Below, one piece after another: positions 9,593 to 55,036 of a DNA stretch of 64,000 nt (the first letter of the stretch is position 1; each line of letters begins with the position of its first letter). The stretch is from Candidatus Doudnabacteria bacterium (GTDB lineage: Bacteria; Patescibacteriota; Doudnabacteria; UBA920; O2-02-FULL-48-8). Both the position numbers and the translations under genes were made by a program. The notes under the pieces were generated by a model. It had not been told where the DNA came from. It ran no database searches and was given only the letters and a program-made list of their open reading frames with translations. Location: contig JAHFJG010000007.1 in assembly GCA_023246005.1 (NCBI GenBank), forward strand, positions 7,312 through 71,311, given 5' to 3'.

Positions 9593-9646
9593 CGCGAGCG
9601 ACCGCTTTTATTTCTAAGGTTTAGTTCTGGCGGTCGCGTGGCGATC

Positions 9647-9973
9647 TTAATCTAAGTCATCGTAGAGATCACACCATTGTGGATTCGTAGATTCAATAAG
9701 TTTTATCTTATCTGCTCTAGATCCGGCCTTAATCTGCTTTTCTCTTGCTAAAGATGAATCAAAGTCATTATGAGCTTCATAATAGACCAGTTTCGTCAGG
9801 TTGTATTTTTTTGTAAAGCCTTCGACTAGTTTTTGCTTATGGGACCAAACTCTTGCTTTTAGTTCTGAGGAATAGCCTGTATATAGAGTCGTATTCGTAA
9901 AGTTAGTCATAATATAAACACAAAACACCTTTTCGTCTTGGTTAAGATTGCTTCGTCCCCTTTGGTAGTTCAT
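9647..9973 (-). CDS. GIY-YIG nuclease family protein (stand-alone, about 108 aa)
   Basis: VFCVYIMTNFTNTTLYTGYSSELKARVWSHK matches the GIY-YIG core. Confidence 0.75.
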   Translation of the reverse strand: MNYQRGRSNLNQDEKVFCVYIMTNFTNTTLYTGYSSELKARVWSHKQKLVEGFTKKYNLTKLVYYEAHNDFDSSLAREKQIKAGSRADKIKLIESTNPQWCDLYDDLD

Positions 9974-9994: not shown

Positions 9995-11881
9995 CTAATT
10001 CTCTGAACTCCCCTGCGCCTGCATTTCTTTTTTGGCTTCTTCAATTTCCAACGCTCGCTTTGGATCGGTTGTGATGATCTGATCTTCCATGTATGAAGCA
10101 ATTATCTTGATGGCCACGTGCTTGATCCCAGCAAAGAAAATTCCTTCCCCCACGTCTGATTCCAACAGCAAATATTTCTCGCCTTCAGTCAAAAAGAAAG
10201 TCTCGACTATCACATCAATCGCGGCTGGTGATTGCTTAAGCAGGAGCTGCAAAGACGAGTTGGTCACAATCGGTTTGCCATATGGAGATTGCAAAAAATC
10301 CGAAACGTCTTGGGTGACGGTCGTGACTCCCAAATAATATTTGCGCGCCCGCTTGGCAATGCCAAATAGAAATTTGGCCGAATCATCATGCTGCATCATC
10401 CACCACGCTTCGTCAATCACCAAAATTCTTTTTTTCAAAGTTGAACGGACTACGTTCCAGATATAATTTAAAGTCACATAAATAGCTATTGGGCGCAGAG
10501 CGTCTTCCAGATCTCGGATCGAAAATACGACTAACTGGTTATCCAAATTAATATTCGTGGTCTGGTTGAAAATTCCAGAAAAAGTCCCTTGCGTATACTT
10601 GGTCAAGCGTTGCGCCATGCTTTCTCCGCCAACCATGCCGGTTAAAATTTCTACCAAATCCTGCATAGTCGGCGGTTCGATATTGGTAAAATCAGAATTG
10701 GCAGTAATGTCTTTTTTGGCATAAGTTTCCCAAATCGCCCGATCCATAATCGCTTCTTCAGTGGGATCCAGTTTCCCAAGCATTAAATTCATCAGCCCCA
10801 ACAAATTAACGACTGCGGAACGTAAAATATCCTCTTTGCTTTCGCCTTCAATGCCTCTTGGCAAATCAAACGGATTAACGCGGGAATCGGAGTTCAAAGA
10901 AATATTCAAAAACGAACCGCCTACAGCATTGGAAAGATGCCGATATTCGTTTTCCGGATCTATGACAATCACATCAGTTCCCAACATTAAGGATCGCAGA
11001 ATCTCCAGCTTGACCGCATAACTTTTGCCCGAGCCTGACTTTGCAAACACGACTGAATTGGCGTTTTCCATCTGAAACCGATCAAACAAAATTAAGCTGT
11101 TATTATGCCGATTAATGCCGTATAAAATTCCGTCATTGGAAGTCAGTTCCGAAGATACAAACGGAAAAGTCGTAGACAAAGGCTGGGTATTCATGTTTGT
11201 GGCAATCGCCAACTCGTCATTGCCTAAAGGCAAGGTCGAGTTGAATCCTTGTTCCATCTGCAATATCGCCGGCTTGGCCACGATTAACTTGGACCCAAGC
11301 AAGGACTCGAGAGTTGCTGAAAATTGATCCAGCTCCTTTAAGTCGTCAGCGTATAAAGTAAAGTAGATGGAAAAACGAAAATATCGCTCGGTTCCTTGCT
11401 GCAGCCTGTTGCGCAATTCTTCCACATCCTGGAAAGCCGTTTCCATCATCGGATCTCTGACATTGCCTTTTTCCTGGCCAAGCCGCATGCTGGCTTCCAG
11501 CTGGCCGACTTTGCTCTTAAGCTTTTTCATAATTTCATCCGTCGCCATGGGGTAAATAAACATGGCCATATCAATTGGCGCATCCAAACTGATGATCGGA
11601 GCTAACCAGTCGACCGAAATAAATCGCGGATAGGACATGATGAAAAAAGACCGCGCCAACCTGCCTGATACCTCGACGGAATTTTGATTGACTCGAAAAG
11701 CTGATGGCGCAATTAAATCCCGCAGAGTATTTAACCCGCTTTTATATTCGCGTTCTTTCTTAACTATCTCACGCTGTAACTCGCGCTGCGGATCAGGTTG
11801 ATTATCGGAAAATAATGCCATATTATTCGCGATCCGAATGACCCGAATTTGCATCCGAATTATCCGAATCATAGTTCGCAT
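9995..11881 (-). CDS. VirB4/TrbE/CagE-family conjugal-transfer (type IV secretion) ATPase
   Basis: Walker A FAKSGSGKSYA. Walker B VLVIDEAWWMM. C-terminal VirB4-like region. The true start is probably the internal MALFSDN at about 11821. Confidence 0.85.
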   Translation of the reverse strand: MRTMIRIIRMQIRVIRIANNMALFSDNQPDPQRELQREIVKKEREYKSGLNTLRDLIAPSAFRVNQNSVEVSGRLARSFFIMSYPRFISVDWLAPIISLDAPIDMAMFIYPMATDEIMKKLKSKVGQLEASMRLGQEKGNVRDPMMETAFQDVEELRNRLQQGTERYFRFSIYFTLYADDLKELDQFSATLESLLGSKLIVAKPAILQMEQGFNSTLPLGNDELAIATNMNTQPLSTTFPFVSSELTSNDGILYGINRHNNSLILFDRFQMENANSVVFAKSGSGKSYAVKLEILRSLMLGTDVIVIDPENEYRHLSNAVGGSFLNISLNSDSRVNPFDLPRGIEGESKEDILRSAVVNLLGLMNLMLGKLDPTEEAIMDRAIWETYAKKDITANSDFTNIEPPTMQDLVEILTGMVGGESMAQRLTKYTQGTFSGIFNQTTNINLDNQLVVFSIRDLEDALRPIAIYVTLNYIWNVVRSTLKKRILVIDEAWWMMQHDDSAKFLFGIAKRARKYYLGVTTVTQDVSDFLQSPYGKPIVTNSSLQLLLKQSPAAIDVIVETFFLTEGEKYLLLESDVGEGIFFAGIKHVAIKIIASYMEDQIITTDPKRALEIEEAKKEMQAQGSSEN

Positions 11882-12245
11882 TAAGGACTCTTTTTGGCTT
11901 CAAAAATGCTGCTCTAAAATTTACTATTAGTCCGAGTTCTAAATTAGCGGCTTTGAGGTATCTTTGCATTTGGATATAATCTTCTTTCGTTATGACCCGT
12001 TTAGCCTTAAAATCTGTTAAAATTCTGCCAAAAATCAGGAAATCTACTCTGTTGCCTTCAGGGGAATCGCTCTGTAAATTCTTAAGCTCGTATTCTCTTT
12101 CAAATGGAATTTTTAGTTTTTTAAGTTTTTCTTCAAATTTATCTGCATATTGTCTTTCTCTAGCAAATCTTCCCAGCTCGTTATGTGTCTCAAAACAAAC
12201 CCCTGTTATTTTATATGATTCATCTGCGTATAATATTCGTGGCAT
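11823..12245 (-). CDS. GxxExxY-family protein (PD-(D/E)XK nuclease-like fold)
   Basis: ITGVCFETHNELG...E motif and size typical of the GxxExxY family. Flanked by inverted repeats (see findings). Confidence 0.5.
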   Translation of the reverse strand: MPRILYADESYKITGVCFETHNELGRFARERQYADKFEEKLKKLKIPFEREYELKNLQSDSPEGNRVDFLIFGRILTDFKAKRVITKEDYIQMQRYLKAANLELGLIVNFRAAFLKPKRVLNANYDSDNSDANSGHSDRE

Positions 12246-12263
12246 TCGGATGTCATTCGTGGA

Positions 12264-12959
12264 TTAGGATCGCAATATGTCCAAATCTTCTACGGATTTA
12301 ATTCTAATTGCCGAGGCTGTGTTTAAATTATAACTATTATACATAAGTTCGATCAGCTCCTCTGTGCTTAAAACCAGGGTTTTCAAGCCCATGGCTGAAA
12401 GTCCCGACACAATCTGATTAACTCGTTTGGACAGCTCTTCGCGGGCGTTTTCAAACTCCAGGCTTTTGCCGGCAATCTGTTTGGCCGGACTAAATAAATT
12501 TGTAACCTTTGACATAAAACCAGATTTGACTCCTGCTGTAGTTAATGGAACAACTACATAAAATGTCTTGTTCATTATGCTGGCAAATTCGATAAGCTTG
12601 CCGATGTATTCGATATATTCTTGCGTCTGCATACGCAGCAATTCGTTGGTTTGTTGTTGCATAATACTCCGCAGCTTGTCCAAATAAGCATGAATGTCGA
12701 GCTTCCTTGATTGCATGAGAATTTGGATGGGAAATTCAAGACCATTGAGAAAATTCTGATAAGCTGAAATTAGAGCGTTTTGTTCTTCCACGCTCTTTAA
12801 GGAAAAATTCGTGGAAGAAACTACCATCACCGTTCGCATGGACCCGTCCCGCATAATAATCGTTCCTTCTTTTATTTCATCAATGTCCAAATAAGCCTGC
12901 GTGCTGGCAGTTGGTTTATTATTGCCTATATTCGATTGCATTTCTTGCTTAGTAGACAT
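12264..12959 (-). CDS. hypothetical protein, T4SS-locus associated
   Basis: Intact ORF co-directional with virB4. No recognisable motif. Confidence 0.3.
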   Translation of the reverse strand: MSTKQEMQSNIGNNKPTASTQAYLDIDEIKEGTIIMRDGSMRTVMVVSSTNFSLKSVEEQNALISAYQNFLNGLEFPIQILMQSRKLDIHAYLDKLRSIMQQQTNELLRMQTQEYIEYIGKLIEFASIMNKTFYVVVPLTTAGVKSGFMSKVTNLFSPAKQIAGKSLEFENAREELSKRVNQIVSGLSAMGLKTLVLSTEELIELMYNSYNLNTASAIRIKSVEDLDILRS

Positions 12960-12986
12960 AGATCAGATAACAGTGAACAGTTAACA

Positions 12987-13352
12987 TTAACTCGTTTTAG
13001 CGCTTGGGACTTTAATTGTCCAGAGCATTGCCCCGATTTCATCCGCTAACTTTGATGATTGCAAATAATCTTCTTCAGTCATATAATTTTCCTTATAGGC
13101 AAATTCAAGAAGATATTTTGATTCTTGAAGAGAACCATAAGAGATATCAAAAAAATTCTGCTGTACTTTATCCCGAATGCGCGCATATCCTTCGATAAAA
13201 TTTAAAATAACCGACAAAGCAGATCTCCTTAACTGAGAAGTAACACCGTATAATTCATCTCTCGGAAAGCTTTTCGTAATTTTATAAACCAAATGAACAT
13301 AAATATCCATCTTTGCTCTTAGTTTATCAAAATATGATTCAGTCTGATGCAT
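12987..13352 (-). CDS. four-helix-bundle protein (23S rRNA intervening-sequence protein family; HEPN clan)
   Basis: Family-typical size (about 120 aa) and motifs (TSQLRRSALSVILNFIEGY...ES.YLL). Flanked by TCAGATAACAG inverted repeats. Confidence 0.8.
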   Translation of the reverse strand: MHQTESYFDKLRAKMDIYVHLVYKITKSFPRDELYGVTSQLRRSALSVILNFIEGYARIRDKVQQNFFDISYGSLQESKYLLEFAYKENYMTEEDYLQSSKLADEIGAMLWTIKVPSAKTS

Positions 13353-13363
13353 TTTGTTATCTG

Positions 13364-13807
13364 TTATCTGATATCTGTTTTCTGACGTATCAGTTCTTTC
13401 TCTTCTTCTGTTTTCTGGTCAAGCAAATATGCTAACTTTTTCAGTCTGCTCTGATCCGGTTCCTCGATGCGCCCTATTTTTGCTGGAGCTGGTTTAGCTT
13501 TTTGGGTTCTAACAACAATATCAACTTCTTCGCGTTTAAAAATCCTAACCTGCGGCTTGGAAAAAAAGCTGACAAATGCCCCTAGGTAAGCAAACATAGG
13601 CCGGCCATTAAATTTCGCAAACCCCACGGCAACGCCGATCAAGGTTACTGGTAGAGCAAATAAGAAAAAGAACACTGAAAACTTCAATAATGAGTAAAAA
13701 AACAAATCAACTCCGCCAGTGGCCAATAAAAACAAAAACTGCTTGAGAGTCAGAGGACCGATTAGTTTATCCTCAATGTCAGTGAATTGCGGTACGGCAA
13801 ATTGCAT
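13364..13807 (-). CDS. PrgI-like small membrane protein (2 TM), putative T4SS component
   Basis: Two hydrophobic helices and a charged C-terminus, adjacent to virB4 and virB6-like genes. Call rests on size and context only. Confidence 0.35.
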   Translation of the reverse strand: MQFAVPQFTDIEDKLIGPLTLKQFLFLLATGGVDLFFYSLLKFSVFFFLFALPVTLIGVAVGFAKFNGRPMFAYLGAFVSFFSKPQVRIFKREEVDIVVRTQKAKPAPAKIGRIEEPDQSRLKKLAYLLDQKTEEEKELIRQKTDIR

Positions 13808-13842
13808 GTTGCAAAGTAAAAAGTTAAAGGTAAAAAATAAAA

Positions 13843-14256
13843 CTAATCGTTATTCTTAAGGGAAACTATGCTAGCGCCTAGTATTTTTGATAATTCTTCA
13901 GCTTCGAGCAACAATTCTTTTGCTTTGTTAGGTTCAGCTTTAGCTGAATCAATCATTAAATTAAGCCAAAATTTTGTTTCGTTCGCAGATTTTAGAGCAT
14001 ATAAGTAAAAATTGATAAAATCCTTTCTGCTGCTAGCAGCTATGGCTTCAATTATATTGGCACCAATGCTTGTTCCACAACGCAATAGCTGTCGAGCCAG
14101 AATCTGAACATTAAAGTCCTTTTTGTCTAAAGTATCAATAAATACTATAACTTCTAGGGCAAATTTATAGCTTCTCGATTTAATGTCTATTTTTATTTTA
14201 GAGTTAGTTTCAGACATTTGCAGTAACTTTTCCACAATAACTATAACATAAAACAA
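13843..14256 (-). CDS. four-helix-bundle protein (23S-IVS protein family); probable true start at ATG 14217
   Basis: SIGANIIEAIAASSRKDF...ALKSANETKFWL, a family-typical motif. The listed start is TTG. Confidence 0.75.
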   Translation of the reverse strand: MFYVIVIVEKLLQMSETNSKIKIDIKSRSYKFALEVIVFIDTLDKKDFNVQILARQLLRCGTSIGANIIEAIAASSRKDFINFYLYALKSANETKFWLNLMIDSAKAEPNKAKELLLEAEELSKILGASIVSLKNND

Positions 14257-14314
14257 TCAAATTACCAAAAAGCCAGGGCGGCTTCCCAGGCTTTTACTTT
14301 TGACTTTTTACCTT

Positions 14315-14755
14315 TTACTTCATGAAAGCTTTTATCCACTTCATCCAGCCCTCTCCTTCATCCTCGTAATTATTCCAAAATTCTTCCGGCCTGACTATTT
14401 TTGTGCCTTGGAATTTTTCAAGCTTAAGAAGATGTTGATCAGAAGTAATCAAATAATCAGCATTGCAAGTAACGGCTGATTCTAAAATTTTATTGTCCTC
14501 GTCATCCTCAACAACGTGCAAAGATTCGCCTGGGCCAATCTGGCTGACCATTTCAAAAAAATATTCCAGTTTTTTGAGATAACCTTCATCATTAATTTTC
14601 TTCTGGGCTAAGAATTTATTTTCTCGCAAAGTGCCTTTGTTGGCATAAGCCTCAACTTGTCTGGCAATAACTAAATCTATGATCCTGTTAGCATAACTGT
14701 GATCATCATTTGATGCGTCTATTAAAGCATTGGTGTCAATCACGACTTTGAGCAT
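14315..14755 (-). CDS. PIN-domain protein (VapC-like putative toxin); no adjacent canonical antitoxin ORF
   Basis: N-terminal VVIDTNALID plus conserved acidic residues downstream (ITSDQHLL). Confidence 0.7.
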   Translation of the reverse strand: MLKVVIDTNALIDASNDDHSYANRIIDLVIARQVEAYANKGTLRENKFLAQKKINDEGYLKKLEYFFEMVSQIGPGESLHVVEDDEDNKILESAVTCNADYLITSDQHLLKLEKFQGTKIVRPEEFWNNYEDEGEGWMKWIKAFMK

Positions 14756-14792
14756 AAAAAGGTTGTAGGTTATAGTTGGTAGGTTGTAGTTA
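14756..14792. repeat. left arm of a ~35-bp inverted repeat bracketing the 4HB gene 14790-15152
   Basis: AAAAAGGTTGTAGGTTATAGTTGGTAGGTTGTAGTTA. Reverse complement of 15226-15260 begins with the same 14 bp AAAAGGTTGTAGGT and shares GGTAGGTTGTAG. Confidence 0.6.
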
Positions 14793-15152
14793 GGACTTAT
14801 CTAATTCTTGGGTCATCTTATTAAGCATGCGCATTATTTCATCCAAAAGATCAACCACGATCAAACTTTTGGCATCATTCCCAAAACCAAGCTTTTTAGA
14901 AATTATCAACTGAGTTTCTAATTCTGCGCCGGATCCATAAGCTGTGAATAAAAAATGACGGTAATCTTTTTTAGTTCCACGCTTACTACCTTCAGCAATA
15001 TTTGACGGGATCGAAACCGCACATCTACGCATTTGGGAAGTCAAACCAAATTGTTCTTCTCGAGGAAAATCTTTTGTTAATCCATAGACTGCAACCACCA
15101 GGTCTAGGGATTTTTGCCAAACAATGAGATCCTTATAAGATGATAAACTCAT
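14790..15152 (-). CDS. four-helix-bundle protein (23S-IVS protein family)
   Basis: Classic motif KDLIVWQKSLDLVVAVYGLTKDFPREEQFGLTSQMRRCAVSIPSNIAEG. Confidence 0.85.
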   Translation of the reverse strand: MSLSSYKDLIVWQKSLDLVVAVYGLTKDFPREEQFGLTSQMRRCAVSIPSNIAEGSKRGTKKDYRHFLFTAYGSGAELETQLIISKKLGFGNDAKSLIVVDLLDEIMRMLNKMTQELDKS

Positions 15153-15225
15153 ATATTATTAATTAATAATACTGAAGTACTTTAGCATTATCCTGAATAA
15201 AAATAAACCCCATGAGGAGGTCTAT

Positions 15226-15260
15226 TCTACAACCTATAACCTACCACCTACAACCTTTTA
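15226..15260. repeat. right arm of the inverted repeat bracketing the 4HB gene 14790-15152
   Basis: TCTACAACCTATAACCTACCACCTACAACCTTTTA. It abuts the stop codon of the upstream gene. Confidence 0.6.
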
Positions 15261-16730
15261 TAGTCTTTCAATTTCCTTACGAAGGTCTGCGATTGCTTCA
15301 AATTCTTGCAGCGTCAAATCGCTGCCGGCTTTGTTCGCGGCATTTTTGAACACCACTGTTCTATCAGCATTATTATCATGAATCATGGCAGAGCCAATTT
15401 GCAGATAAATCTTAAACAATGGGCTTTGTTCAAAGGCATTAACGACATAATACGGCAACAGCCGGTTGGCTTGCGCCAGATAAATGATTCGAGATTGGAG
15501 ATTCGAGATTTGAGCTTGCAAAGTTCCCGCGCGCAGATAGCTTAAATCAACTTTTTTCAAATCATCAACGATTTGAATATCATTTAATGATTTCGAAGGA
15601 GTCAATTTGACTGAAGCGGGCCTGTAATAATTCTCCGGTGCGACTGAAGACGGCAGAAACTTTGTAGGTAAAGGAACGGGCTTTGAGATCCGCAATCCTG
15701 AATTCATTTCAGGATCTCTTTTTTGAGATACTGAAACCCCTGAACTTGATTCAGGGTCAGCATTGCGAGGCGGAGAAACCAATTCCGGAGTTTTCACTTC
15801 ACGCTTAATTTCTTCCGGCGTCATCTTCACAAGCGTTTGTTTGCTGCTATCTGATATCTGTTTACTGATCCCTGTTTCCCCCATTTGCCGCCGCAAAACT
15901 TCCAGGTCTTGGCCGTGAGAAGGAGTTGGTGGTCTGGGAGGAGTTCGTGGTCGTGGGGCAACTGGTATATTCTGATTTTTAACAACTTGCTGGAAATCTA
16001 CTGTTGCTTCTTCAAAGGCTGTTCCGTATTTGAGCCAATCATAAAGCTCTAGAATAATAAGCAACAACTTTCGATCGGTATTGGACAACTTCCGGACAGT
16101 TTGGTTCTGATTTATGTACGTAATCCTTTCTATAGCTCCTCTTGTTTCGAGTATAGGTCCTGCTTTTCTTGTGTTTCGATCATAATCCAATAACCAGTTG
16201 CCTATTGAGGGTGGGACATTTTTATCTGCTATTGTTAGGGGATTACTACCAACTGTAACAAAACTCCTAAGCATGATATTAGCCAATGACTCGGCAATCG
16301 CTCCTTCTTCTCTAACGTCATCATAAACATTTAAAACATCCTGAAACTTTTCTTGGATTGGTATTTTGGCCTTTATTGCATCTGTCAGATGGTTCTTGAT
16401 CAAATTTTCTATTTCTGCAAAGGGCCTTGAGGACAAACATTCAAATTTCAACAGGACTATCAATTTCTGATATTTTTCGTACAGCTCCGGGGACTCAGTT
16501 TTCAGTTCTGGGTATTTGCCAATCAATATGTCTTCCAAAAGCATCCGAGCTTTCAAGGCCTCTTCCCGGTTATCAAACTCAATGCTTCCTTCAACTATTT
16601 GCTTGAACTGCTCAAAAACCTCCGGATATGCTAACTGCTTTCTGTCCGTGATGAAAGACAATGGTGTTGTATTACCAACCACAGCGGAGTTAGATGTTGT
16701 GCTTTGCTGAATTAGAGTTTCGTCTGGCAT
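15258..16730 (-). CDS. hypothetical protein (490 aa, Pro-rich linker), T4SS-locus associated
   Basis: Intact ORF between the 4HB gene and the VirB6-like gene. PRPRTPPRPPTP linker. No recognisable catalytic motif. Confidence 0.3.
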   Translation of the reverse strand: MPDETLIQQSTTSNSAVVGNTTPLSFITDRKQLAYPEVFEQFKQIVEGSIEFDNREEALKARMLLEDILIGKYPELKTESPELYEKYQKLIVLLKFECLSSRPFAEIENLIKNHLTDAIKAKIPIQEKFQDVLNVYDDVREEGAIAESLANIMLRSFVTVGSNPLTIADKNVPPSIGNWLLDYDRNTRKAGPILETRGAIERITYINQNQTVRKLSNTDRKLLLIILELYDWLKYGTAFEEATVDFQQVVKNQNIPVAPRPRTPPRPPTPSHGQDLEVLRRQMGETGISKQISDSSKQTLVKMTPEEIKREVKTPELVSPPRNADPESSSGVSVSQKRDPEMNSGLRISKPVPLPTKFLPSSVAPENYYRPASVKLTPSKSLNDIQIVDDLKKVDLSYLRAGTLQAQISNLQSRIIYLAQANRLLPYYVVNAFEQSPLFKIYLQIGSAMIHDNNADRTVVFKNAANKAGSDLTLQEFEAIADLRKEIERL

Positions 16731-19640: not shown

Positions 19641-19669
19641 AAGGTAAAGGGTTACGATGCCCGGGTCGT

Positions 19670-20080
19670 TTAGGGGTTACGATTAGGGTTCTTAAACTTA
19701 CTCCATGCAGAGCCTAGGTTATAGAGCTGCCGACCTGTTTTATCATATATATCGACTAGTTCGGTGACTAAGGCAGGATTTATATCATAAATATCACGAC
19801 ATTGTTCAAGACTTACTATTGTTTCATTGCATTCTGCCATCGCATCATCGATATATTTTTGAAAACCTAGTTTTTGATGTCTTTTAGCATAACCTTCCGC
19901 AATTAATCTCGGGGATGCTTTACAAGAACGTCTCAATTGATCCTTTAGATCATACTTTTCTTCTTGAGGAATCTTGGGCAGAATTTCTTTCATTACCCGC
20001 AGCATTGCAGCGTAACTATTCTGATATACTTCTAGGTCTCGAAAGCTTTTAATTGGTTTCTTGTTTTCATCGTTGTTCAT
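19670..20080 (-). CDS. four-helix-bundle protein (23S-IVS protein family; HEPN clan)
   Basis: FRDLEVYQNSYAAMLRV...LKDQLRRSCKASPRLIAEGY, family-typical. Flanked by repeated palindromic motif ACGATGCCCGGGTCGT. Confidence 0.75.
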   Translation of the reverse strand: MNNDENKKPIKSFRDLEVYQNSYAAMLRVMKEILPKIPQEEKYDLKDQLRRSCKASPRLIAEGYAKRHQKLGFQKYIDDAMAECNETIVSLEQCRDIYDINPALVTELVDIYDKTGRQLYNLGSAWSKFKNPNRNP

Positions 20081-20257
20081 GACGTTACCTTTGACCGCCT
20101 TACGATACGGGCCTCGTTGCCGCTTTGAATTCGTTAATGGTTTAATGGTTATGATGCCCGGGTCGTCTAAAGGTGACGTCGAGGGCCTAAAAAACCGTTA
20201 CCTCTCAACTCCTCACCATACGGGCCTCGTTACCTCTTAACGCTAACCGATTTATAC

Positions 20258-24701: not shown

Positions 24702-25565
24702 CTATAAAAACTTGTCAAAGACTTGATAGAGTCGGATCCAATCCTCAATACTTAAATCTTGCGGTCTTAAAGTTGGGTCAATGCCTGCTTTTTGCAAAGC
24801 TTGAACATCAGTGATTGTATTTTTGATTTGTTTTCGTTTGCCGGCAAAAGCTGTTTTGATAATTCTGAAGAATAATTTTTTGTCTTCGATTTCTGGATAT
24901 TTGTTTTTTGGTTCAATTCTTAAAATTACAGAATCTACTTTGGGCATTGGCCAAAAACTGGTTTTGGGAATAATCAAAGGTGGAGTCTTCTCCCCAAAAC
25001 CATCCCGGACTTGATCCGGGATCTTAACTGTCGCAATCTCAACGTCCGCGTAAATCTGCACGGAAATTCCGAGGATGGATAATTCACCGGGTGCAGCCAC
25101 TACTCTCTCCCCAACTTCTTTCTGAACCATCAACACCAGTAACTTTGGCTGGTGTTCGCGCTCAAGAAATATTTGAAAAAGTTTGGAAGTCAAATAATAA
25201 GGAATATTGGCCACAACTTTATAATCGCCTTGAATAAATTTCTCAACATGGAATTTTAAAATGTCTTCGTTAATAATATTAAGATTCGGAATACTTTTAA
25301 ATTGTTTCTTCAAAAAAGCAACTAGATTAAAATCTTTTTCAATCGCATAAACTTGTTTGGCATATTTGATTAATTCCGAAGTTAGTACACCCAAGCCAGG
25401 GCCGACTTCCAAAACAACATCAGTCGATTTCAAATCAGCTGCGGCAACAATTGCGTGCAGTGCAGCTTTATCAACCAAAAAATTCTGGCCCAAATAATCT
25501 TTGGGTTTAAAGCCTGCGGTTCTTAGTAAATTTTTTATCTGTTCACTATCGGAAAGGTCTACCAT
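24702..25565 (-). CDS. rsmA: 16S rRNA (adenine1518/1519-N6)-dimethyltransferase RsmA/KsgA
   Basis: GQNFLVD...VLEVGPGLGVLTSEL SAM-binding motif. Typical length. Confidence 0.85.
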   Translation of the reverse strand: MVDLSDSEQIKNLLRTAGFKPKDYLGQNFLVDKAALHAIVAAADLKSTDVVLEVGPGLGVLTSELIKYAKQVYAIEKDFNLVAFLKKQFKSIPNLNIINEDILKFHVEKFIQGDYKVVANIPYYLTSKLFQIFLEREHQPKLLVLMVQKEVGERVVAAPGELSILGISVQIYADVEIATVKIPDQVRDGFGEKTPPLIIPKTSFWPMPKVDSVILRIEPKNKYPEIEDKKLFFRIIKTAFAGKRKQIKNTITDVQALQKAGIDPTLRPQDLSIEDWIRLYQVFDKFL

Positions 25566-27580
25566 GACAGGCTTCCTTGTTGAATTTCCAGCAATTCTTC
25601 GGGAATGGCTTTTAAAATTCTGGATGGAATCGAAATATTTCGCGTGCCGTATTGCTTGCGAGATGTCGCATAAACCAAATATAAATGCTTCCTAGCTCGC
25701 GTCACGCCGACATAAGCCAGCCGGATTTCTTCAGCGATTTCTTTTGGCTCAAGCAGAGATCGCGAATGCGGCAACAGTCCTTCTTCTAAACCTACCAAAA
25801 AAACCGTATCGAATTCCAGTCCTTTGGCTTGATGCAAAGTCATGAGTGTCACTTTCGGGGAATTCAGATCGACTTCATCGGCCTGCGTCATGAGCGCCAC
25901 CTCTTCCAAAAATTTGTTCAAGCCTTCTTTCCAATTCATGGCACGGAAGCTTCCCGCGACATTGAACAGTTCCTGAATATTTTCCCAGCGACTCTCCCCT
26001 TCTTCCGATCCATCGCGCAAAAAAGTCTCATAGCCTGAAAGTTTAAGAGTCTGGCGCAGCAAATCCAGAAGATTGGCGGTTTCATTAAGTTTGCTTAACA
26101 AATCCTGCATTTCAAAAAAATTCTTAATTGCTGGCCTAGCCGCGAACAATTCGGCAAGCTCTTGTTCTTTCTTTTCAAGCAACGCGTCTTTCAACAAATC
26201 AAAAGTCTTGGGTCCAATCCCCCGAGGCGGCGTATTTATTACGCGTTTTAAGCTGACTAAATCATTTCGATTAACCAACAAACGAAGATAGCTTAAGATA
26301 TCTTTAATTTCTTTTCGCTCATAAAATTTGAGTCCTCCGACAATTTGGTATGGAATACTAGCTTCAATCATAACTTCTTCCAGCACGCGCGACTGGGCAT
26401 GAGTCCGATATAGCACCGCCATGTGGTTCAGGCCGATTCGGTTTTTCAGTTTTGGCAAAATTTTTGATTTGGCTTGACGCATGATCCGACCCAAGATTGT
26501 TTCGTCATCCTCTGCCACATATTGGATTTCTTCTGTTTTTCCATCCTGATGTTCAATTATCTTGCTGGCAACAAAATAGGCTTCGGCTAATTCGTCTTCA
26601 GCCGCAAATAACAGAGGGATTTGCCCTTGTTCATTTTCAGTCCATAACCGCTTTTTGTGCTGGCGCGGGCTTAATTCAATGATTTTTTCAGCAATCGCAA
26701 GAATCGGGGCAGTAGATCGGTAATTTTGCTCTAATCTGATGATTTGGGCTGAAGGGTAGTCATCTTCAAAATCCAAAATATTCTGCAAATTAGCTCCGCG
26801 AAAACCATAAATTGCCTGGGCGTCATCCCCAACCACAAAAATATTTTTATGGGTGGCGACGAGCAATTTGGTAAACATGTATTGAACGTGGTTGGTATCC
26901 TGGTATTCATCCACCAGCAAATATTTCCAAAGCTCCTGGTATTTTTTCAAAATTTCCGGATGTGTCTGGAAAATCGTTACGGGCAAAACCAAAAGATCGC
27001 CGAAATCCACGGCATTGTTTTTTCGCAATTCGTCTTGATATTGCTCGTAGACTTGTTTAACGGTTTTTCTGAAGCGGTCGTCGTCATTGTCATAATCATC
27101 TGGTCCTTGTAAGTTATTCTTCGCCCGATCAATGATAGCCGCAAATAGCGATGGTTTGAATTTGGTCGGGTCAATTTTTAACCGCAACAAAATATCTTTC
27201 AGCAGACTTTCCTGGTCATTGTCATCATAAATTACAAAGTTGGACGCCAGTCCGGCGAGTTTCCCTTCCGCTCTCAAAATACGAACCCCGATCGAATGAA
27301 ATGTTCCCATGACTGGCATGGATGGAGACCTCTCTGTCCCTTGGTGTCGAAATCCCATTAGTTTGAAAATTCTCTGTTTCATCTCCCCGGCCGCTTTATT
27401 GGTAAAAGTCACGGCTAAAATATTTTCAGGCCTAAAGTTTAATTTTTTAATCAAATAAACTATGCGCATTGTCAACGCGCGCGTCTTGCCGCTGCCTGCG
27501 CCGGCCAAAATCAAAACCGGCCCCATGGGAGCTGTGACCGCTTCGATCTGCGCTTGATTAAGACCAAGGTTTTCTTTCAT
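25559..27580 (-). CDS. ATP-dependent DNA helicase UvrD/PcrA family
   Basis: Walker A AGAGSGKTRALT. DEYQDTN. Superfamily 1 helicase motifs throughout. Confidence 0.85.
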   Translation of the reverse strand: MKENLGLNQAQIEAVTAPMGPVLILAGAGSGKTRALTMRIVYLIKKLNFRPENILAVTFTNKAAGEMKQRIFKLMGFRHQGTERSPSMPVMGTFHSIGVRILRAEGKLAGLASNFVIYDDNDQESLLKDILLRLKIDPTKFKPSLFAAIIDRAKNNLQGPDDYDNDDDRFRKTVKQVYEQYQDELRKNNAVDFGDLLVLPVTIFQTHPEILKKYQELWKYLLVDEYQDTNHVQYMFTKLLVATHKNIFVVGDDAQAIYGFRGANLQNILDFEDDYPSAQIIRLEQNYRSTAPILAIAEKIIELSPRQHKKRLWTENEQGQIPLLFAAEDELAEAYFVASKIIEHQDGKTEEIQYVAEDDETILGRIMRQAKSKILPKLKNRIGLNHMAVLYRTHAQSRVLEEVMIEASIPYQIVGGLKFYERKEIKDILSYLRLLVNRNDLVSLKRVINTPPRGIGPKTFDLLKDALLEKKEQELAELFAARPAIKNFFEMQDLLSKLNETANLLDLLRQTLKLSGYETFLRDGSEEGESRWENIQELFNVAGSFRAMNWKEGLNKFLEEVALMTQADEVDLNSPKVTLMTLHQAKGLEFDTVFLVGLEEGLLPHSRSLLEPKEIAEEIRLAYVGVTRARKHLYLVYATSRKQYGTRNISIPSRILKAIPEELLEIQQGSLSW

Positions 27581-27843
27581 AAGCGCTTGTATTATAGCTT
27601 GTTGTTCGAATTATGAATAATGAATAAGGGATGAGGACCAGTTTCCTAATTCCTTATTCCAAATTCCTAATTCCTTTCTTGTGGATAAAGCTATTGACCA
27701 AATTAGCCTTTTTTGATAGGATTGATTGAGCGATTTATTGATGTACTGGATAGAATAGTTAAATCCAAAATTTACTTATTTACAGGAATTAAGTAGAAAT
27801 TGGCTGCATAGGAGCTCTTATTTTATCATTCAAAAAGAAGAGC

Positions 27844-29121
27844 ATGATTCAAAATTCAGATCAGCGTTCTTCTGTCTCTTTCTTCAAAAAACTTTCGGAA
27901 ATTTGGAAAACAAACAGCAAATTCACAATCCATCCTTTCAAATCCCTGCACTCACGACACCTTCTGCCTCTGTCCGTTCCTGACTATGCCGCGCGTTTTA
28001 GTTTTGAACTTGTCATATTGACAATCGCAATCTTCGCAGTAATCGTAAATTTTTCTCTTAATAATCACGCTAACCACATCTCCTCTTCTGATCAAAGCGT
28101 GATTTTTTCATTTTTAAAAAATAATCCAAACCTCAATCGCAACCTTTTAACAAATTCCGACACAACCACTATTCTTGCTCAAACCGACCAATTAATTGCC
28201 AAAGCTCAAGCTCAATCAACATTGGGAGTGGTGCTCACTTCAACTCAAATTCTAAACTCAAGACCTAACCCGACTACCATTCAAGAAGATGTAATTTTGA
28301 AAACCAATCCGGCTGATACCCAAAATACTAATCGACAAGGACTGACCAAATATGATGTTGCTCCAGGCGATACCATTACTGGCATTGCTTCAAGTTTCGG
28401 CATTTCGCCCCAAACAATCATGATGGAAAATAAGCTGAATGAAAACACAGTCTTGAAGCCAGGACAAGAACTGACCATCCTGCCGACCACAGGCATTACC
28501 TACACGCTCAAACCAAGTGACACGCTGGAATCAATTTTGAACAAATACAAAATTTCTGAAAATGATTTTCTTGATGCTAACAACATTGAATCATTCAATG
28601 ACTTGGATATCGGCAGTATTGTCGTCATCCCAATGCAGAATGTAAGTTTGCCCCAGGCGCCAAAGCCCCGATCTAAATTCGTTCTTGATGAAACTAACAA
28701 AGTAGCCTTGAAACAAGCTCTGGCGCCGGATAATCTGATTACAGGCCCAATTAGTTTTATTTGGCCAACTTCAGTTAAAAGCATTACTCAAGGATTTTCT
28801 CGCCGCCATTCTGGCATAGACATCTCTGACAGTAAAATGGAGCCAATTTACGCAGCAGCCGACGGTTTTGTCGAGATTTCAGGATATCAGGCCAATGGTT
28901 ACGGCAATACCATAGTCATTAACCATGGTGGCGGGTTTAAGACGCGTTATGGGCATGCTTCCGAGCTTTATGTCCAAGCCGGAGATTTCGTCAAAGCTGG
29001 CCAGCTGATTGCCAAACAAGGCCGCACAGGACGCGTCCGTGGAGCGACTGGAATTCACTTGCATTTTGAAATCATAAAAAATGGGATACATGTTAACCCC
29101 CTGGAATACGTCAAGCCATAA
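27844..29121 (+). CDS. LysM-domain M23 family metallopeptidase (peptidoglycan endopeptidase)
   Basis: Two LysM-like segments (YDVAPGDTITGIASSFG..., YTLKPSDTLESILNKYKIS...). M23 motifs HSGIDI...GYGNTIVINHGGGFKTRYGH...HLHFEI. Confidence 0.8.
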   Translation: MIQNSDQRSSVSFFKKLSEIWKTNSKFTIHPFKSLHSRHLLPLSVPDYAARFSFELVILTIAIFAVIVNFSLNNHANHISSSDQSVIFSFLKNNPNLNRNLLTNSDTTTILAQTDQLIAKAQAQSTLGVVLTSTQILNSRPNPTTIQEDVILKTNPADTQNTNRQGLTKYDVAPGDTITGIASSFGISPQTIMMENKLNENTVLKPGQELTILPTTGITYTLKPSDTLESILNKYKISENDFLDANNIESFNDLDIGSIVVIPMQNVSLPQAPKPRSKFVLDETNKVALKQALAPDNLITGPISFIWPTSVKSITQGFSRRHSGIDISDSKMEPIYAAADGFVEISGYQANGYGNTIVINHGGGFKTRYGHASELYVQAGDFVKAGQLIAKQGRTGRVRGATGIHLHFEIIKNGIHVNPLEYVKP

Positions 29122-29222
29122 ATCAGATAACAGTTAACAGTAAACAGATAACAGAAAACAAACCCAACATCGCATTGCTGGGTTTTATGTTATCTGATAT
29201 CTGATTTTTGTTATCTGACTCT
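29122..29222. terminator. extended imperfect palindrome with central terminator-like hairpin in a convergent gene junction; carries CAGATAACAG / CTGTTATCTG motif copies
   Basis: ATCAGATAACAGTTAACAGTAAACAGATAACAG...AACCCAACatcgcattGCTGGGTT...TGTTATCTGATATCTGATTTTTGTTATCTG. Confidence 0.5.
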
Positions 29223-43936: not shown

Positions 43937-44319
43937 GGGGCTGTTTAGATTCGACAAAAGTTCTTTGATAAATACTGCAAGTCCGATTAGCCTAATTTCT
44001 CGGTTAAAAAAATAAGGCAAATCATAAATGCCAATTCTTTGGTAAGCAAGATTAAGAACGCTTTTGCGTTCTCTCCTGCTTTGGCAGTCGCTTAAACAGT
44101 TACTGCCCATCTGTCCTGCAAAGTCTGTGCGCAGATCACAGGTGTTATATTATCGGACTTACTTTAGTTGACGCCTGACAGCTAAAGGACACTTAAGGCT
44201 GACCTTAAGGCGCTTTGGTCTGCTTCTATGTCTTAAGGGAAATTTTAAAGCAGTCTAAGCTTGTAGAAGTATTTGTTAAAATCTTTTGGACGGGAGTGCA
44301 AATCTCCCCAGCTCCACCA
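43937..44319 (+). ncRNA. ssrA: tmRNA (ssrA)
   Basis: 5' end GGGGCTGTTTAGATTCGAC. 3' end has T-arm GGGAG-TGCAAAT-CTCCC, acceptor CAGCTCC, then ACCA. G3-U70 pair. Candidate tag reading frame ends ...AFAFSPALAVA*. Confidence 0.7.
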
Positions 44320-44481
44320 TTCGACTCCGTAATGCTTCGCATTACTTCGCTCATGGTCTCCGTTTTCGTTTTAAACGAAAACTTCGACCACATTGTTGAG
44401 TCGAATGGTGGAGTCCCGAGTGAGGAGTATAACGACGAATCGAGGGACTAACGAAGTGAGGAGTCGAGGGACTAATTTTAT

Positions 44482-44733
44482 ATGTCATTTTATTTTTATA
44501 TTGCTAAATGTCAGAATCAAAGTTTGTACTGTGGATCTACAAACAACATTGATCAAAGAATAATCCGCCATAACTCAGGCCAAGGCGCTAGATGGTTTAA
44601 ACAGCACGGTCCAGGCGAAATTGTCTATTCTGAAAACTTTGATACACTAGGCGAAGCCAGAAAAAGAGAAACCCAAATTAAAAAATGGTCGCGAATAAAA
44701 AAAGAAAATCTCATTAAAGGACTAAAACCATAA
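44482..44733 (+). CDS. GIY-YIG nuclease family protein (stand-alone, 83 aa)
   Basis: MSFYFYIAKCQNQSLYCGSTNNIDQRIIRHNSG matches the GIY...YxG...R...H core. Confidence 0.7.
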   Translation: MSFYFYIAKCQNQSLYCGSTNNIDQRIIRHNSGQGARWFKQHGPGEIVYSENFDTLGEARKRETQIKKWSRIKKENLIKGLKP

Positions 44734-54789: not shown

Positions 54790-55036
54790 AACTTTCTAAT
54801 AATGTCCAGGTTAAATTTTCCGAATTAAACTGTAGTTTAAAGTAATTCGTACTATCTGAAACTGCAAAAAAATAAAACTTGGCCCGGCCTTGCCAGCTGG
54901 TGTAAACCAAGTTAATTTTTTTGATCACAACTTCTCGGTCTTGCCACAAAAACTTCATTGGTAAAAGTTTACCTGCAGAAAATTTTGCCACAACTTCGAT
55001 TGGTTCGTTGATTTGATTAAACATAAAAGACGGCAT
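54779..55036 (-). CDS. small hypothetical protein (85 aa) upstream of dinB
   Basis: Intact ORF. No recognisable motif. Confidence 0.3.
   Translation of the reverse strand: MPSFMFNQINEPIEVVAKFSAGKLLPMKFLWQDREVVIKKINLVYTSWQGRAKFYFFAVSDSTNYFKLQFNSENLTWTLLESYAE

Follow-up and report, generated by a model that had tools for sequence, protein, structure and literature searches.

The T4SS-like operon in the window (the whole 64,000-nucleotide stretch of Candidatus Doudnabacteria DNA analysed here) holds small genes at the junctions of its core genes, which raises the question of whether these genes carry their own inverted repeats and, if so, what such units are. An earlier note had claimed that each of four small genes is bracketed by its own inverted repeat, with arms that abut or overlap the neighbouring stop and start codons. 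All genes of the locus lie on the minus strand, and the four units are laid out as follows.

15227-15260, minus strand: 4HB_c 5' arm, heptamers GGTTGTA/GGTGGTA/GGTTATA, abutting the p490 stop codon (15258-15260).
15153-15226, minus strand: 4HB_c spacer, with a hairpin and U-run (about 15192-15227) and the -10-like AATGCTAAAGT.
14790-15152, minus strand: 4HB_c gene, PF05635 (128.8 bits).
14756-14789, minus strand: 4HB_c 3' arm, ending immediately ahead of the PIN start codon (14753-14755).
14292-14326, minus strand: 4HB_b 5' arm, heptamers AAGTAAA/AAGGTAA, overlapping the PIN stop codon (14315-14317).
14240-14289, minus strand: 4HB_b terminator-like hairpin (14265-14289) and TG-extended -10 promoter-like site (14240-14268).
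13843-14256, minus strand: 4HB_b gene, PF05635.
13808-13842, minus strand: 4HB_b 3' arm, whose paired core (13814-13842) stops 6 nt ahead of the PrgI start codon (13805-13807).
13353-13390, minus strand: 4HB_a 5' arm, heptamers CAGATAA/CAGATAT, overlapping the PrgI stop codon (13364-13366).
12987-13352, minus strand: 4HB_a gene, PF05635 23S_rRNA_IVP, TIGR02436.
12951-12986, minus strand: 4HB_a 3' arm, overlapping the p231 start codon (12957-12959).
12232-12277, minus strand: GxxExxY 5' arm, CGAAT-core repeats, including the stop of p231 (12264-12266) and the start of GxxExxY (12243-12245).
11823-12245, minus strand: GxxExxY / PD-(D/E)XK gene, PF13366, TIGR04256.
11824-11869, minus strand: GxxExxY 3' arm, ATTCG repeats, ending 2 nt ahead of the probable VirB4 start (ATG 11819-11821).

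The placement against neighbouring codons is correct in all four cases. PrgI gains four C-terminal residues (TDIR) encoded by the 4HB_a 5' arm, and the GxxExxY protein has its domain up to residue 114 and a C-terminal tail encoded within its 3' arm. The true start of 4HB_b is probably the ATG at 14215-14217, and the terminator-like hairpin and promoter-like site of this cassette lie inside it, in the interval from 5' arm to ORF.

A window-wide repeat finder recovered inverted repeats at 14757-14789/15227-15259 (33 nt, 85%), 13814-13842/14292-14320 (29 nt, 83%) and 12951-12979/13355-13383 (29 nt, 79%), all three 4HB pairs ranking among the longest in the window, together with one of 17 nt (88%) around GxxExxY at 11832-11848/12235-12251. 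In a targeted test, each 160-nt flank was aligned (gapped, local) with the reverse complement of the opposite flank and compared with 300 shuffles. All four pairs exceeded the shuffled controls, with scores of 20.5, 16.5 and 14.0 for 4HB genes 14790-15152, 13843-14256 and 12987-13352 (p<0.004 each) and of 12.5 for the GxxExxY arms 11824-11860/12244-12277 (p=0.003), whereas the flanks of the core genes PrgI, p231, p490, p967, p296 and p342 were not significant (p 0.30-0.93). In an ungapped scan of the whole window, which has lower power, the 20.5 pair alone beats all 30 dinucleotide shuffles. As RNA duplexes, the four pairs have energies of -40.5, -23.4, -18.9 and -38.7 kcal/mol (z = -7.4, -5.0, -3.7 and -7.2), and in the minimum free energy fold of each whole cassette the first 60 nt are paired to the last 60 nt by 26-40 base pairs. 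The inverted repeats described in the earlier note are thus real, with similarity beyond chance and ends that pair in predicted folds. The arm strings given in the earlier note were largely right (TCAGATAACAG at 12963-12973, CTGTTATCTG at 13361-13370, GTAAAAAGTTAAAGGTAAAA at 13817-13836). ATCCGAATGAC exists as well, at 11832-11842, slightly beyond the range reported for it, but the exact string GTCATTCGGAT is not present, the actual letters being GGCATTCGGAT (12241-12251) and GTCATTCGTGGAT (12252-12264).

Around the three 4HB genes, each arm consists of 4-5 tandem heptamers (TRF period 7, 4.1-4.3 copies), the two arms being inverted to each other; the unit count is partly set by the detection threshold. 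In 4HB arms the autocorrelation at lag 7 is 0.65, versus about 0.3 at the remaining lags. Each GxxExxY flank contains 1.6-2.1 copies of CGAAT/ATTCG against 0.09 expected. The type of arm is specific to the protein family: 4HB genes have tandem heptamers, GxxExxY genes CGAAT-core repeats and GIY-YIG genes CCATTGCGAGG-type hairpins. The window also holds one more 4HB unit and two hairpins devoid of ORFs.

19643-20120, minus strand: fifth cassette, with the 4HB_d gene at 19670-20080 and non-heptamer arms of core ACGAGGCCCGTATCGT / ACGACCCGGGCATCGT.
29117-29222, no strand assigned: ORF-less hairpin with arms as in the 4HB_a cassette and a 22-nt loop.
27608-27673, no strand assigned: inverted heptamers GAATAAT / TTCCTAA forming a hairpin around a 6-nt loop, no ORF.

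The heptamer-array nature of the 4HB arms and this fifth 4HB gene had been overlooked in the earlier note. The 4HB_d arm pair is weaker, of another type and not significant in the targeted shuffle test. Its arms and ORF are conserved at three different sites, in the window and in relatives L007 and L012, and homology stops just beyond the arms. The hairpin at 29117-29222, located between convergent genes, has a 16-mer and a 13-mer in common with 4HB_a, never found in shuffles; that at 27608-27673 is located in a divergent intergenic region.

The core genes keep the order p967-p490-(PIN)-PrgI-p231-VirB4 in 80 related loci from Doudnabacteria, and the 4HB, GxxExxY and GIY-YIG genes occupy spacers that differ from genome to genome. 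Inserts are missing altogether from L027, the nearest relative compared (88% identity in VirB4): 9 nt separate PrgI from p231, p231 and VirB4 overlap, and the heptamer hairpin is absent at all four junctions. The small genes have thus been inserted into an otherwise conserved operon, with occupancy that is patchy among close relatives. In relatives, too, the genes keep their own repeats: the flanking inverted repeat is significant for 26 of 30 4HB, 7 of 9 GxxExxY and 6 of 13 GIY-YIG genes versus 1 of 13 PIN genes; an earlier tblastn-based pass had given 24/25 positives for 4HB versus 5/73 for PrgI and 8/74 for p231. The cassette ORFs are under purifying selection, with dN/dS of 0.06-0.13 where dS is computable.

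Arms and ORF pass to descendants and to new sites as one unit. This is seen for 4HB_c, to which 2gsc (XCC0516) is the solved structure nearest in sequence. Genes of 65-79% amino-acid identity to 4HB_c have TAG[G/C]TT[G/A/T] heptamer arms in seven contexts: p490-PIN, CorA-CysS, a pilin operon, a POR operon (Bipolaricaulota), DegV-thiolase, downstream of RNase Y, and a T2SSF operon. Between the window and L094, dS has reached saturation and third codon positions agree in 42% of cases, yet the 3' arm is identical at 30 of 31 positions and the core of the 5' arm across 22 nt. Arms are thus far more conserved than synonymous codon positions, and the imperfect order of their units is likewise conserved in cassettes at different loci. 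Within a 4HB subfamily, arm conservation goes far past the neutral expectation, and the arm sequence itself is constrained, beyond mere complementarity. Protein identity and arm similarity are correlated (Mantel rho 0.19, reached by 0 of 2000 permutations), a comparison confounded by conserved flanking genes at shared sites. Arms are also retained by ORF-less derivatives, and the loop lengths of inverted heptamer pairs are bimodal (14-142 nt and 350-450 nt). In L013, 4HB_c arms stand at the identical site around an ORF reduced to its 3' end, so that this 'empty' hairpin arose by deletion and does not represent an uninvaded target.

The design agrees with that of ORF-bearing intervening sequences (IVSs) of 23S rRNA, known from Coxiella burnetii, Leptospira and Azospirillum lipoferum, in which a PF05635/S23p ORF is looped by an imperfect stem of about 28-35 bp that terminal inverted repeats form and that contains tandem heptamers, sporadic in relatives and with ORF-less versions. 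Indeed, an A. lipoferum locus within LSU rRNA (Rfam, 908 bits) has a 4HB ORF flanked by inverted CAGAGGA/CGGAGGA heptamer arrays, and cyanobacterial and Gemmatimonadota 4HB genes share this heptamer-arm design. The Coxiella IVS stem contains GACAGAT heptamers and is cleaved by RNase III at the first repeat, and its excision by this enzyme was shown experimentally (PMC4990558). Unlike these IVSs, found at helix 25 or 45, the present cassettes occupy protein-gene junctions of a T4SS-like operon, two have their own terminator-like hairpin and promoter, and sister cassettes of analogous architecture carry PD-(D/E)XK or GIY-YIG genes.

Patchy occupancy, joint movement of arms and ORF, conservation of the arms, ORF-less derivatives and the rRNA IVS design together support the reading that the small genes are the cargo of self-contained, horizontally mobile stem-loop cassettes (arm - ORF - inverted arm), kin of the ORF-bearing IVSs, which landed exactly at junctions of protein-coding genes. 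This we consider probable, in a joint judgement that includes the recognition of the arms proposed below. The earlier proposal of IVS-like mobile cassettes bounded by inverted repeats is supported, given that arms and ORF reach unrelated sites together, other phyla included. The excision from the transcript that it also proposed is partly contradicted, by the internal terminator and promoter of two cassettes, by stem mismatches without a G:U excess and by the constraint on arm sequence. Several observations count against the cassette reading: a recombinase, transposase or reverse transcriptase is not encoded by the cassettes, duplications of the target were not seen at their sites, GxxExxY genes outside CPR have weak or absent arms, the heptamer arrays flanking a Pseudanabaena 4HB gene are direct and not inverted, and 4HB_a homologues of 51-63% identity have different heptamers, the arms not always tracking the protein.

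Correia/NEMIS elements of Neisseria and other MITEs are also small, intergenic and bounded by inverted repeats, are co-transcribed with neighbours, form hairpins that are RNase III substrates and may carry promoters. Correia elements have one common terminal-repeat sequence, a TA target duplication and no ORF, whereas here arms differ per cassette lineage, duplications were not observed and an ORF is present in most copies. Next to the ORF-bearing cassettes, the ORF-less hairpins of the window look like non-autonomous copies. The MITE analogy of the earlier note is a loose one: a common terminal repeat and a transposase are absent, and target-site duplications were not observed. Integron cassettes likewise have small, mostly promoterless ORFs and imperfect inverted repeats with conserved structure and cassette-specific sequence. 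Their attC, recombined by IntI at attI, forms one compact hairpin at just one end of the cassette, unlike the present arms on either side of the ORF in cassettes dispersed among operons.

The 4HB proteins match PF22296 bAvd and NF033474, with scores under the Avd family cut-off, and share a homologous four-helix-bundle fold with Avd, a pentamer that binds nucleic acids and partners a mobile-element enzyme in diversity-generating retroelements. Unlike in Avd systems, reverse transcriptase, template repeat and variable repeat are absent beside these 4HB genes, and we know of no catalytic activity of 4HB proteins. 4HB/S23p/Avd-like proteins are pentameric, which may be set beside the 4-5 heptamers per arm.

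An alternative, which we regard as unlikely, is that the stem is selected only as RNA, for RNase III excision from the operon transcript or for restored translational coupling, its arms having no sequence information and no role in mobility. Long sense-strand stems are predicted for every cassette, the stem base sets upstream stop and downstream start 6 nt or less apart, in insert-free relatives the genes at the 4HB_a and GxxExxY junctions overlap or have 5-9 nt between them, arm sequence differs per cassette as expected of a structure-only signal, and the homologous Coxiella IVS is excised by RNase III (PMC4990558). Such a role does not account for the conservation of arm sequence and unit order at different loci, for arm type differing with protein family, or for stem mismatches with no G:U excess (28 G:U versus 22 A:C on the sense strand). 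Nostoc and Calothrix cassettes, moreover, are antisense to host genes. The loops of 4HB_b and 4HB_c also hold the terminator-like hairpin and promoter; among homologues of 4HB_c the position of this module is kept and the hairpin stems covary. Given that the promoter-like site lies between 5' arm and ORF, the cassette's own transcript would be without the 5' arm.

It is more doubtful still that the hairpins came first, with heptamer arrays being ordinary host terminators or regulator sites in whose loops selfish genes land, so that the arms belong to the site. Among tandem repeats in 1.37 Mb of Doudnabacteria DNA, period 7 is the most frequent, many inverted heptamer pairs there have short, empty loops, and the empty hairpin between convergent genes is terminator-like. 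rRNA IVSs, too, are located in loops of pre-existing helices. The natural 3' ends of host genes look like the adjacent heptamer, which could reflect local seeding of arrays and not imported arms, and in L001 the same 5' arm is retained with a GIY-YIG gene inside and the 3' arm absent; both observations also count against mobile cassettes. Geobacter inverted pairs of five heptamers have been read as regulator sites (PMC2700814). Against this stand the homologous ORFs that have the same arms at unrelated sites and in different phyla, the deletion product in L013 and the lack of any heptamer hairpin in L027. It is hardly credible that chance or base composition produced the arms: the spacers are AT-rich and repetitive and a single pair stands out window-wide, but the idea is refuted by the shuffle and non-cassette controls, the replication in independent 4HB versus PIN genes, the duplex energies (z down to -7.4) and the occurrence in further phyla, GC-rich Gemmatirosa and Azospirillum among them.

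Arrays of about 4-5 tandem heptamers between genes, frequently paired in convergent, inverted orientation as here, are found as STRR in cyanobacteria, GGGAATC in Xanthomonas, TAACTGA in Beggiatoaceae and the Geobacter sites, in phyla that are also rich in 4HB genes. Such arrays flank 4HB genes of Nostoc, Calothrix, Geminocystis and Picosynechococcus. Three surveys read the repeats as G-quadruplex, translational or regulator sites without linking them to 4HB/S23p genes (PMC4692102, PMC4679880, PMC2700814), and our literature search found no such link; here it is drawn from a small sample.

For the mobile cassettes, the arms would be cis-acting sites of sequence-specific recognition, most plausibly by the cassette's own protein, and this recognition would serve the mobility or maintenance of the element. 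Where a cassette is co-transcribed with its host genes, as may hold for 4HB_a and GxxExxY in their formerly overlapping or tightly coupled junctions, the stem of about 30 bp would juxtapose the upstream stop and downstream start codons. It could plausibly be cut by RNase III, as such stems are in rRNA, and this would limit the harm to the operon.

The comparisons show that the small genes inserted in the T4SS-like module of the window belong to mobile, self-contained elements of the type of the intervening sequences (IVSs) of 23S rRNA, in which an ORF is enclosed by the two arms of an inverted repeat (a cassette), placed precisely in gene junctions. The minus strand carries every gene between 7.6 and 20.1 kb of the window, and the nearest relatives of the window are Candidatus Doudnabacteria (CPR/Patescibacteria). 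In 5' to 3' order, the module reads:

19670-20080, minus strand: four-helix-bundle (4HB) gene, 4HB_d
minus strand: p967, TrbL-like
minus strand: p490
14790-15152, minus strand: 4HB gene, 4HB_c
14315-14755, minus strand: PIN gene
13843-14256, minus strand: 4HB gene, 4HB_b
13364-13807, minus strand: PrgI
12987-13352, minus strand: 4HB gene, 4HB_a
12264-12959, minus strand: p231
11823-12245, minus strand: GxxExxY/PD-(D/E)XK gene
9995-11881, minus strand: VirB4-like ATPase, actual start probably 11821
9647-9973, minus strand: GIY-YIG gene
minus strand: p296, followed by p342

Four ORFs of the window match PF05635, the S23p family (E 1e-37 to 6e-18), as well as TIGR02436, and the closest solved homologue by sequence is XCC0516 (structure 2gsc, E 4e-23). 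The protein of the GxxExxY cassette differs from this family and is assigned to PF13366. An Rfam search found no rRNA in the window, and the arms and cassettes matched no Rfam family at either the gathering or the E<=1 threshold.

The earlier note had claimed that 4HB_a, 4HB_b, 4HB_c and the GxxExxY gene are each bracketed by an inverted repeat, and this is borne out by gapped local alignment of each 160-nt flank with the reverse complement of the opposite flank, where all four pairs beat 300 shuffles (p<=0.003). The flanks of PrgI, p231, p490, p967, p296, and p342 fail to beat their own shuffles in the same test. This targeted test was used in place of a window-wide ungapped scan, given that the latter found nothing with a harsh mismatch penalty and, with a milder one, only the best pair exceeded all shuffles. 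In a generic repeat search of the whole 64-kb window, the arm pairs of 4HB_a, 4HB_b, and 4HB_c rank with the longest inverted repeats. The arm sequences and positions first reported are correct within a few bases, but GTCATTCGGAT is present only approximately; the claim that the arms abut or overlap the stop and start codons of the neighbouring genes is true of all four cassettes. The stems that had been proposed are also predicted by folding, with duplex energies of -18.9 to -40.5 kcal/mol (z -3.7 to -7.4), and the predicted minimum-free-energy fold of each entire cassette joins both of its ends.

Each class of small gene has its own kind of arm. The arms of 4HB_a, 4HB_b, and 4HB_c, six in all, consist of 4.1-4.3 tandem heptamers (TRF period 7) of the CAGATAA, AAGTAAA, and GGTTGTA types. 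Among the 4HB arms of the Doudnabacteria loci, the lag-7 autocorrelation is 0.65 versus approximately 0.3 at other lags. GxxExxY arms are built of CGAAT-core repeats spaced by 8-12 nt, and the flanks of these genes contain 1.6-2.1 copies of CGAAT (5') and ATTCG (3') per gene versus 0.09 expected, while GIY-YIG arms are hairpins of the CCATTGCGAGG type. In 48 of 58 cases a paired heptamer array has 4-5 units. The first arm is always the purine-rich one (322 A:T versus 193 T:A pairs), and the natural 3' end of the host gene resembles the adjoining heptamer. A role of the heptamer arms as an all-frame stop barrier was rejected, since only 6 of 20 5' arms stop all three frames and shuffled sequences do equally well (P=0.27). 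The case for CGAAT-type arms beyond CPR bacteria is weak: the inverted repeat at the GxxExxY gene of Treponema spans no more than 11 bp (p=0.03), and none is present in Persicobacter.

The arms also contribute coding sequence. The GxxExxY ORF owes its final 20-odd codons to its arm, and PrgI of the window has four extra C-terminal residues (TDIR) from the heptamer array, where its relatives end in ...QK*. The mechanically called starts of VirB4 (11819-11881) and 4HB_b (14215-14256) are probably too long. VirB4 homologues align only from residue 21 of the window ORF and, therefore, the real start is probably the ATG at 11819-11821, the extra N-terminal codons being probably read-through of the GxxExxY 3' arm. 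For 4HB_b the start is probably the ATG at 14215-14217, downstream of an internal promoter.

The core order p967-p490-(PIN)-PrgI-p231-VirB4-p296-p342 is constant in 80 related loci, with 4HB, GxxExxY, and GIY-YIG genes occupying differing spacers in different genomes; even relatives that are 88% identical in VirB4 have different contents at each junction. Empty sites, which the proposal of mobile cassettes calls for in relatives, do exist: in one locus (L027) that lacks any insert, the PrgI-to-p231 gap is 9 nt and p231 overlaps VirB4. Across 1.37 Mb of Doudnabacteria DNA, significant flanking repeats were found for 26 of 30 4HB, 7 of 9 GxxExxY, and 6 of 13 GIY-YIG genes. The GxxExxY set was restricted to phmmer matches shorter than 220 residues; an iterative HMM search drifted to proteins of 700-870 residues and missed the gene of the window itself. 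The PIN gene is stably present in the module and is without an inverted repeat (significant in 1 of 13).

The p490-to-PIN spacer of L027 measures 61 nt, and in it are a terminator and an extended -10 promoter. Spacers of the module in L027 (1223-1290), L001, L013, and L003 contain hairpins of intrinsic terminators with TG-extended -10 promoters (TGTGGTATAAT type) after them. In L027 just 6 nt separate the -10 of the PIN gene from its ATG, a spacing suggestive of a leaderless mRNA. In another related locus the p490-to-PIN spacer reaches 1072 nt (L016:7165-8238), and both of its ends are very long purine-rich heptamer arrays of the GATAGGA, AATAGGA, and GATAAGA types.

That arms and ORF move as one unit is seen when homologous cassettes are compared at different sites. 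The 4HB_d cassette, with non-heptamer arms, is kept at three of them (upstream of p967 in the window, between p490 and PrgI in L007, and between VirB4 and p296 in L012), and homology ends just beyond the arms. Members of the 4HB_c subfamily (65-79% protein identity) carry TAG[G/C]TT[G/A/T] heptamer arms in seven settings, namely the p490-PIN site of several Doudnabacteria, between CorA and CysS, a pilin operon of Collierbacteria, a pyruvate:ferredoxin oxidoreductase operon of Bipolaricaulota, between DegV and a thiolase, a site in one Portnoybacteria genome downstream of RNase Y, and a site adjoining T2SSF in one Vogelbacteria genome. Between the 4HB_c cassettes of the window and of the CorA-CysS site, third-codon identity is 42% and dS is saturated; the 3' arms are identical at 30 of 31 positions, the 5' arms have a core identical over 22 nt, and the imperfect order of variant units is also shared. 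This arm identity despite saturated dS, together with the conserved unit order, indicates from alignment that the arms are constrained in sequence, beyond mere complementarity. The cassette ORFs are under purifying selection (dN/dS 0.06-0.13 for pairs with computable dS). A Mantel test of protein identity against arm similarity was positive, but cassettes at shared sites also have conserved coding sequence beside them, which confounds the test; for this reason, specific pairs at different sites are relied on instead. Extra forward and reverse 4HB_d arm motifs (GGTAACGAGGCCCGTATGG / GACGACCCGGGCATCATAACC) occur upstream of 4HB_d at 20150-20237, and this candidate ORF-less copy was rejected because its predicted fold is no better than that of shuffles (z -0.56).

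Arms are also found with no ORF between them, in two hairpins of the window:

29117-29222: ORF-less hairpin with arms homologous to those of 4HB_a, between the stop codons of convergent genes
27608-27673: ORF-less inverted heptamer hairpin (GAATTAT GAATAAT GAATAAG... / TTCCTAA...) with a 6-nt loop

The first shares a 16-mer (CAGATATCAGATAACA) and a 13-mer with the 4HB_a arms, with zero chance expectation, and aligns to them with approximately 80% column identity; its 22-nt loop is itself a small hairpin, and it sits exactly between genes 27844-29121 (plus strand) and 29225-31027 (minus strand). The second is placed between divergent genes, 27 nt upstream of where gene 25559-27580 (minus strand) starts. 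In the related locus L013, 4HB_c arms occupy the identical site and enclose a 142-nt loop that keeps only the last 4HB codons (...LLDEVMRMLTKMTQ...), indicating, from the retained ORF end, that at least some of the empty hairpins are deletion products. In the window and the 80 loci (1.37 Mb), 7 is the most frequent tandem-repeat period, with 215 TRF rows; periods 9 and 12 have 159 and 114. Of 208 heptamer arrays, at least 81 are paired with an inverted array no more than 700 nt away (0 in shuffled controls), and the loop lengths of inverted heptamer pairs are bimodal, at 14-142 nt (empty) and 350-450 nt (with a 4HB gene).

The window contains further repeats. A palindromic array with CGAAT/ATTCG cores, of the GxxExxY arm type and without an ORF, is found at 54719-54779, at the junction of genes 54779-55036 and 53494-54789 (both minus strand). 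The hairpin CCATCGCGAGCGACCGC...GCGGTCGCGTGGCGAT at 9593-9645 separates the GIY-YIG gene (9647-9973) from p296; its CCATTGCGAGG-type motif flanks the GIY-YIG genes of relatives and is ORF-less in the spacers of L001 and L024. A second small GIY-YIG gene (44482-44733, plus strand) lies directly downstream of the tmRNA gene (43937-44319), and an inverted copy of the tmRNA 3' end occurs 56 nt further on (arms 44312-44334 and 44391-44413, 87% complementary). Within the p490 coding sequence there are a one-mismatch copy of the 4HB_a arm 16-mer (15845-15860; zero chance expectation) and a four-unit GATTCGA array (15486-15514).

ORF-bearing rRNA IVSs have been known since the early 1990s; to our knowledge, it is not understood how they spread or what S23p/4HB proteins do. 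The 4HB cassettes resemble 23S rRNA IVSs in their S23p-family ORF, in the terminal inverted repeats that form a long predicted stem around it, and in the tandem heptamers of this stem, as described for the Coxiella IVS, where they lie beside the ORF start (PMC4990558). Insertions in CPR rRNA are known to encode GIY-YIG and 23S_rRNA_IVP proteins (PMC11270868). A replicon of Azospirillum lipoferum has a 4HB homologue within an LSU rRNA gene (Rfam RF02541, 908 bits), with inverted heptamer arrays of the CAGAGGA/CGGAGGA type on either side of it. Inverted tandem units of approximately 6-8 nt flank the 4HB genes of five further taxa, several of them between operon genes: Nostoc edaphicum (within an RNR operon, on the opposite strand), Calothrix, Picosynechococcus (between cas10 and cmr3), Geminocystis, and Gemmatirosa. 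On a plasmid of Pseudanabaena galeata (L085:450-1100), the arrays around a 4HB gene between cas6 and cas4 are direct and not inverted (about 15 copies of AAAGCTA upstream and about 10 of AAAGCCA downstream). Published descriptions report inverted heptamer pairs for Xanthomonas and Geobacter, a few such pairs for Nostoc, and tandem heptamer repeats for Beggiatoaceae (PMC4692102, PMC4679880, PMC2700814), with no link to 4HB genes drawn in them.

The cassettes differ from IVSs in location, between protein-coding genes instead of in helix 25 or 45 of 23S rRNA. They share with MITEs the existence of ORF-less copies with the same ends (29117-29222 versus the 4HB_a arms, and the internal deletion in L013), but MITE terminal repeats are common to all copies and served by one transposase, whereas the cassette arms differ from each other and a domain search of the cassette ORFs found no transposase. 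No target-site duplication is evident between occupied and empty junctions, where the arms overlap host stop and start codons and boundaries are not sharp. A nuclease fold, as in homing endonucleases, is found in the GxxExxY and GIY-YIG genes, but not in the 4HB cassettes, which are the majority; moreover, homing endonucleases have one conserved target site, whereas homologous cassettes occur here at many unrelated junctions. Integron cassettes have an attC hairpin at the 3' end, with IntI and attI nearby, whereas here arms lie on both sides of the ORF.

The earlier note read these genes as IVS-like cassettes that could be excised from the transcript, or as mobile cassettes bounded by inverted repeats; the reading as mobile IVS-like cassettes holds, while RNA excision is not established. 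RNase III excises IVSs from the rRNA precursor; the stems of the cassettes are predicted ones. An action at the RNA level, either through such excision or through translational coupling kept by the juxtaposed stop and start codons, would be plausible for 4HB_a and GxxExxY, whose cassettes have no internal signals and interrupt junctions at which the genes once overlapped or were tightly coupled. The 4HB_b and 4HB_c cassettes, in contrast, contain a terminator-like hairpin, which covaries across homologues, and an extended -10 promoter, which argues against an obligatory co-transcript. Selection at the RNA level was also sought in the stem mismatches on the sense strand, where G:U is not in excess (28 G:U versus 22 A:C and 93 other); this absence of signal is weak negative evidence because RNase III tolerates mismatches. 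Together with the conservation of the arms at the sequence level, these observations weaken the RNA-level explanation as a general one.

The arms would be cis sites recognized by their sequence, and the protein of the cassette itself is their most plausible partner. The description of XCC0516 as a pentamer in the literature, set beside the 4-5 units of most paired arrays, is suggestive of this role. A wider scheme, which we offer tentatively and consider rather doubtful, is that 4HB/S23p proteins, a very large orphan family in terms of function, bind their own heptamer arrays in a sequence-specific way, with one pentamer per 4-5-unit arm, and that proteins and arms form a vast and so far unrecognized class of autonomous mobile mini-elements in rRNA helices and gene junctions. 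The enigmatic STRR-like repeats of cyanobacteria, Xanthomonas, Geobacter, and CPR bacteria would then be what is left of such elements after decay and loss of the ORF, and nuclease-fold variants, either convergent or related, would be represented by the GxxExxY and GIY-YIG cassettes.

The literature searched yielded no description of IVS-type 4HB cassettes with cognate heptamer arms in protein-coding operons, and the search for 4HB/S23p genes with heptamer repeats outside rRNA returned nothing but the Coxiella IVS paper. A search with the 4HB protein gave at least 8000 significant matches and, among the matches listed, clusters of 1-4 members each. If routine siting between genes, subfamily-specific and strongly conserved arms, and decay to ORF-less hairpins are true, three puzzles, namely where IVSs come from, what the swarms of 4HB, GxxExxY, and small GIY-YIG genes do in CPR bacteria, cyanobacteria, and Bacteroidota, and how bacterial heptanucleotide repeats arose, would merge into a single testable problem. 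When CPR genomes are annotated, such inserts affect the spacers of operons, the extended C-termini of host proteins, and the calling of start codons, and the finding bears on the tolerance of selfish DNA within essential operons of minimal genomes.
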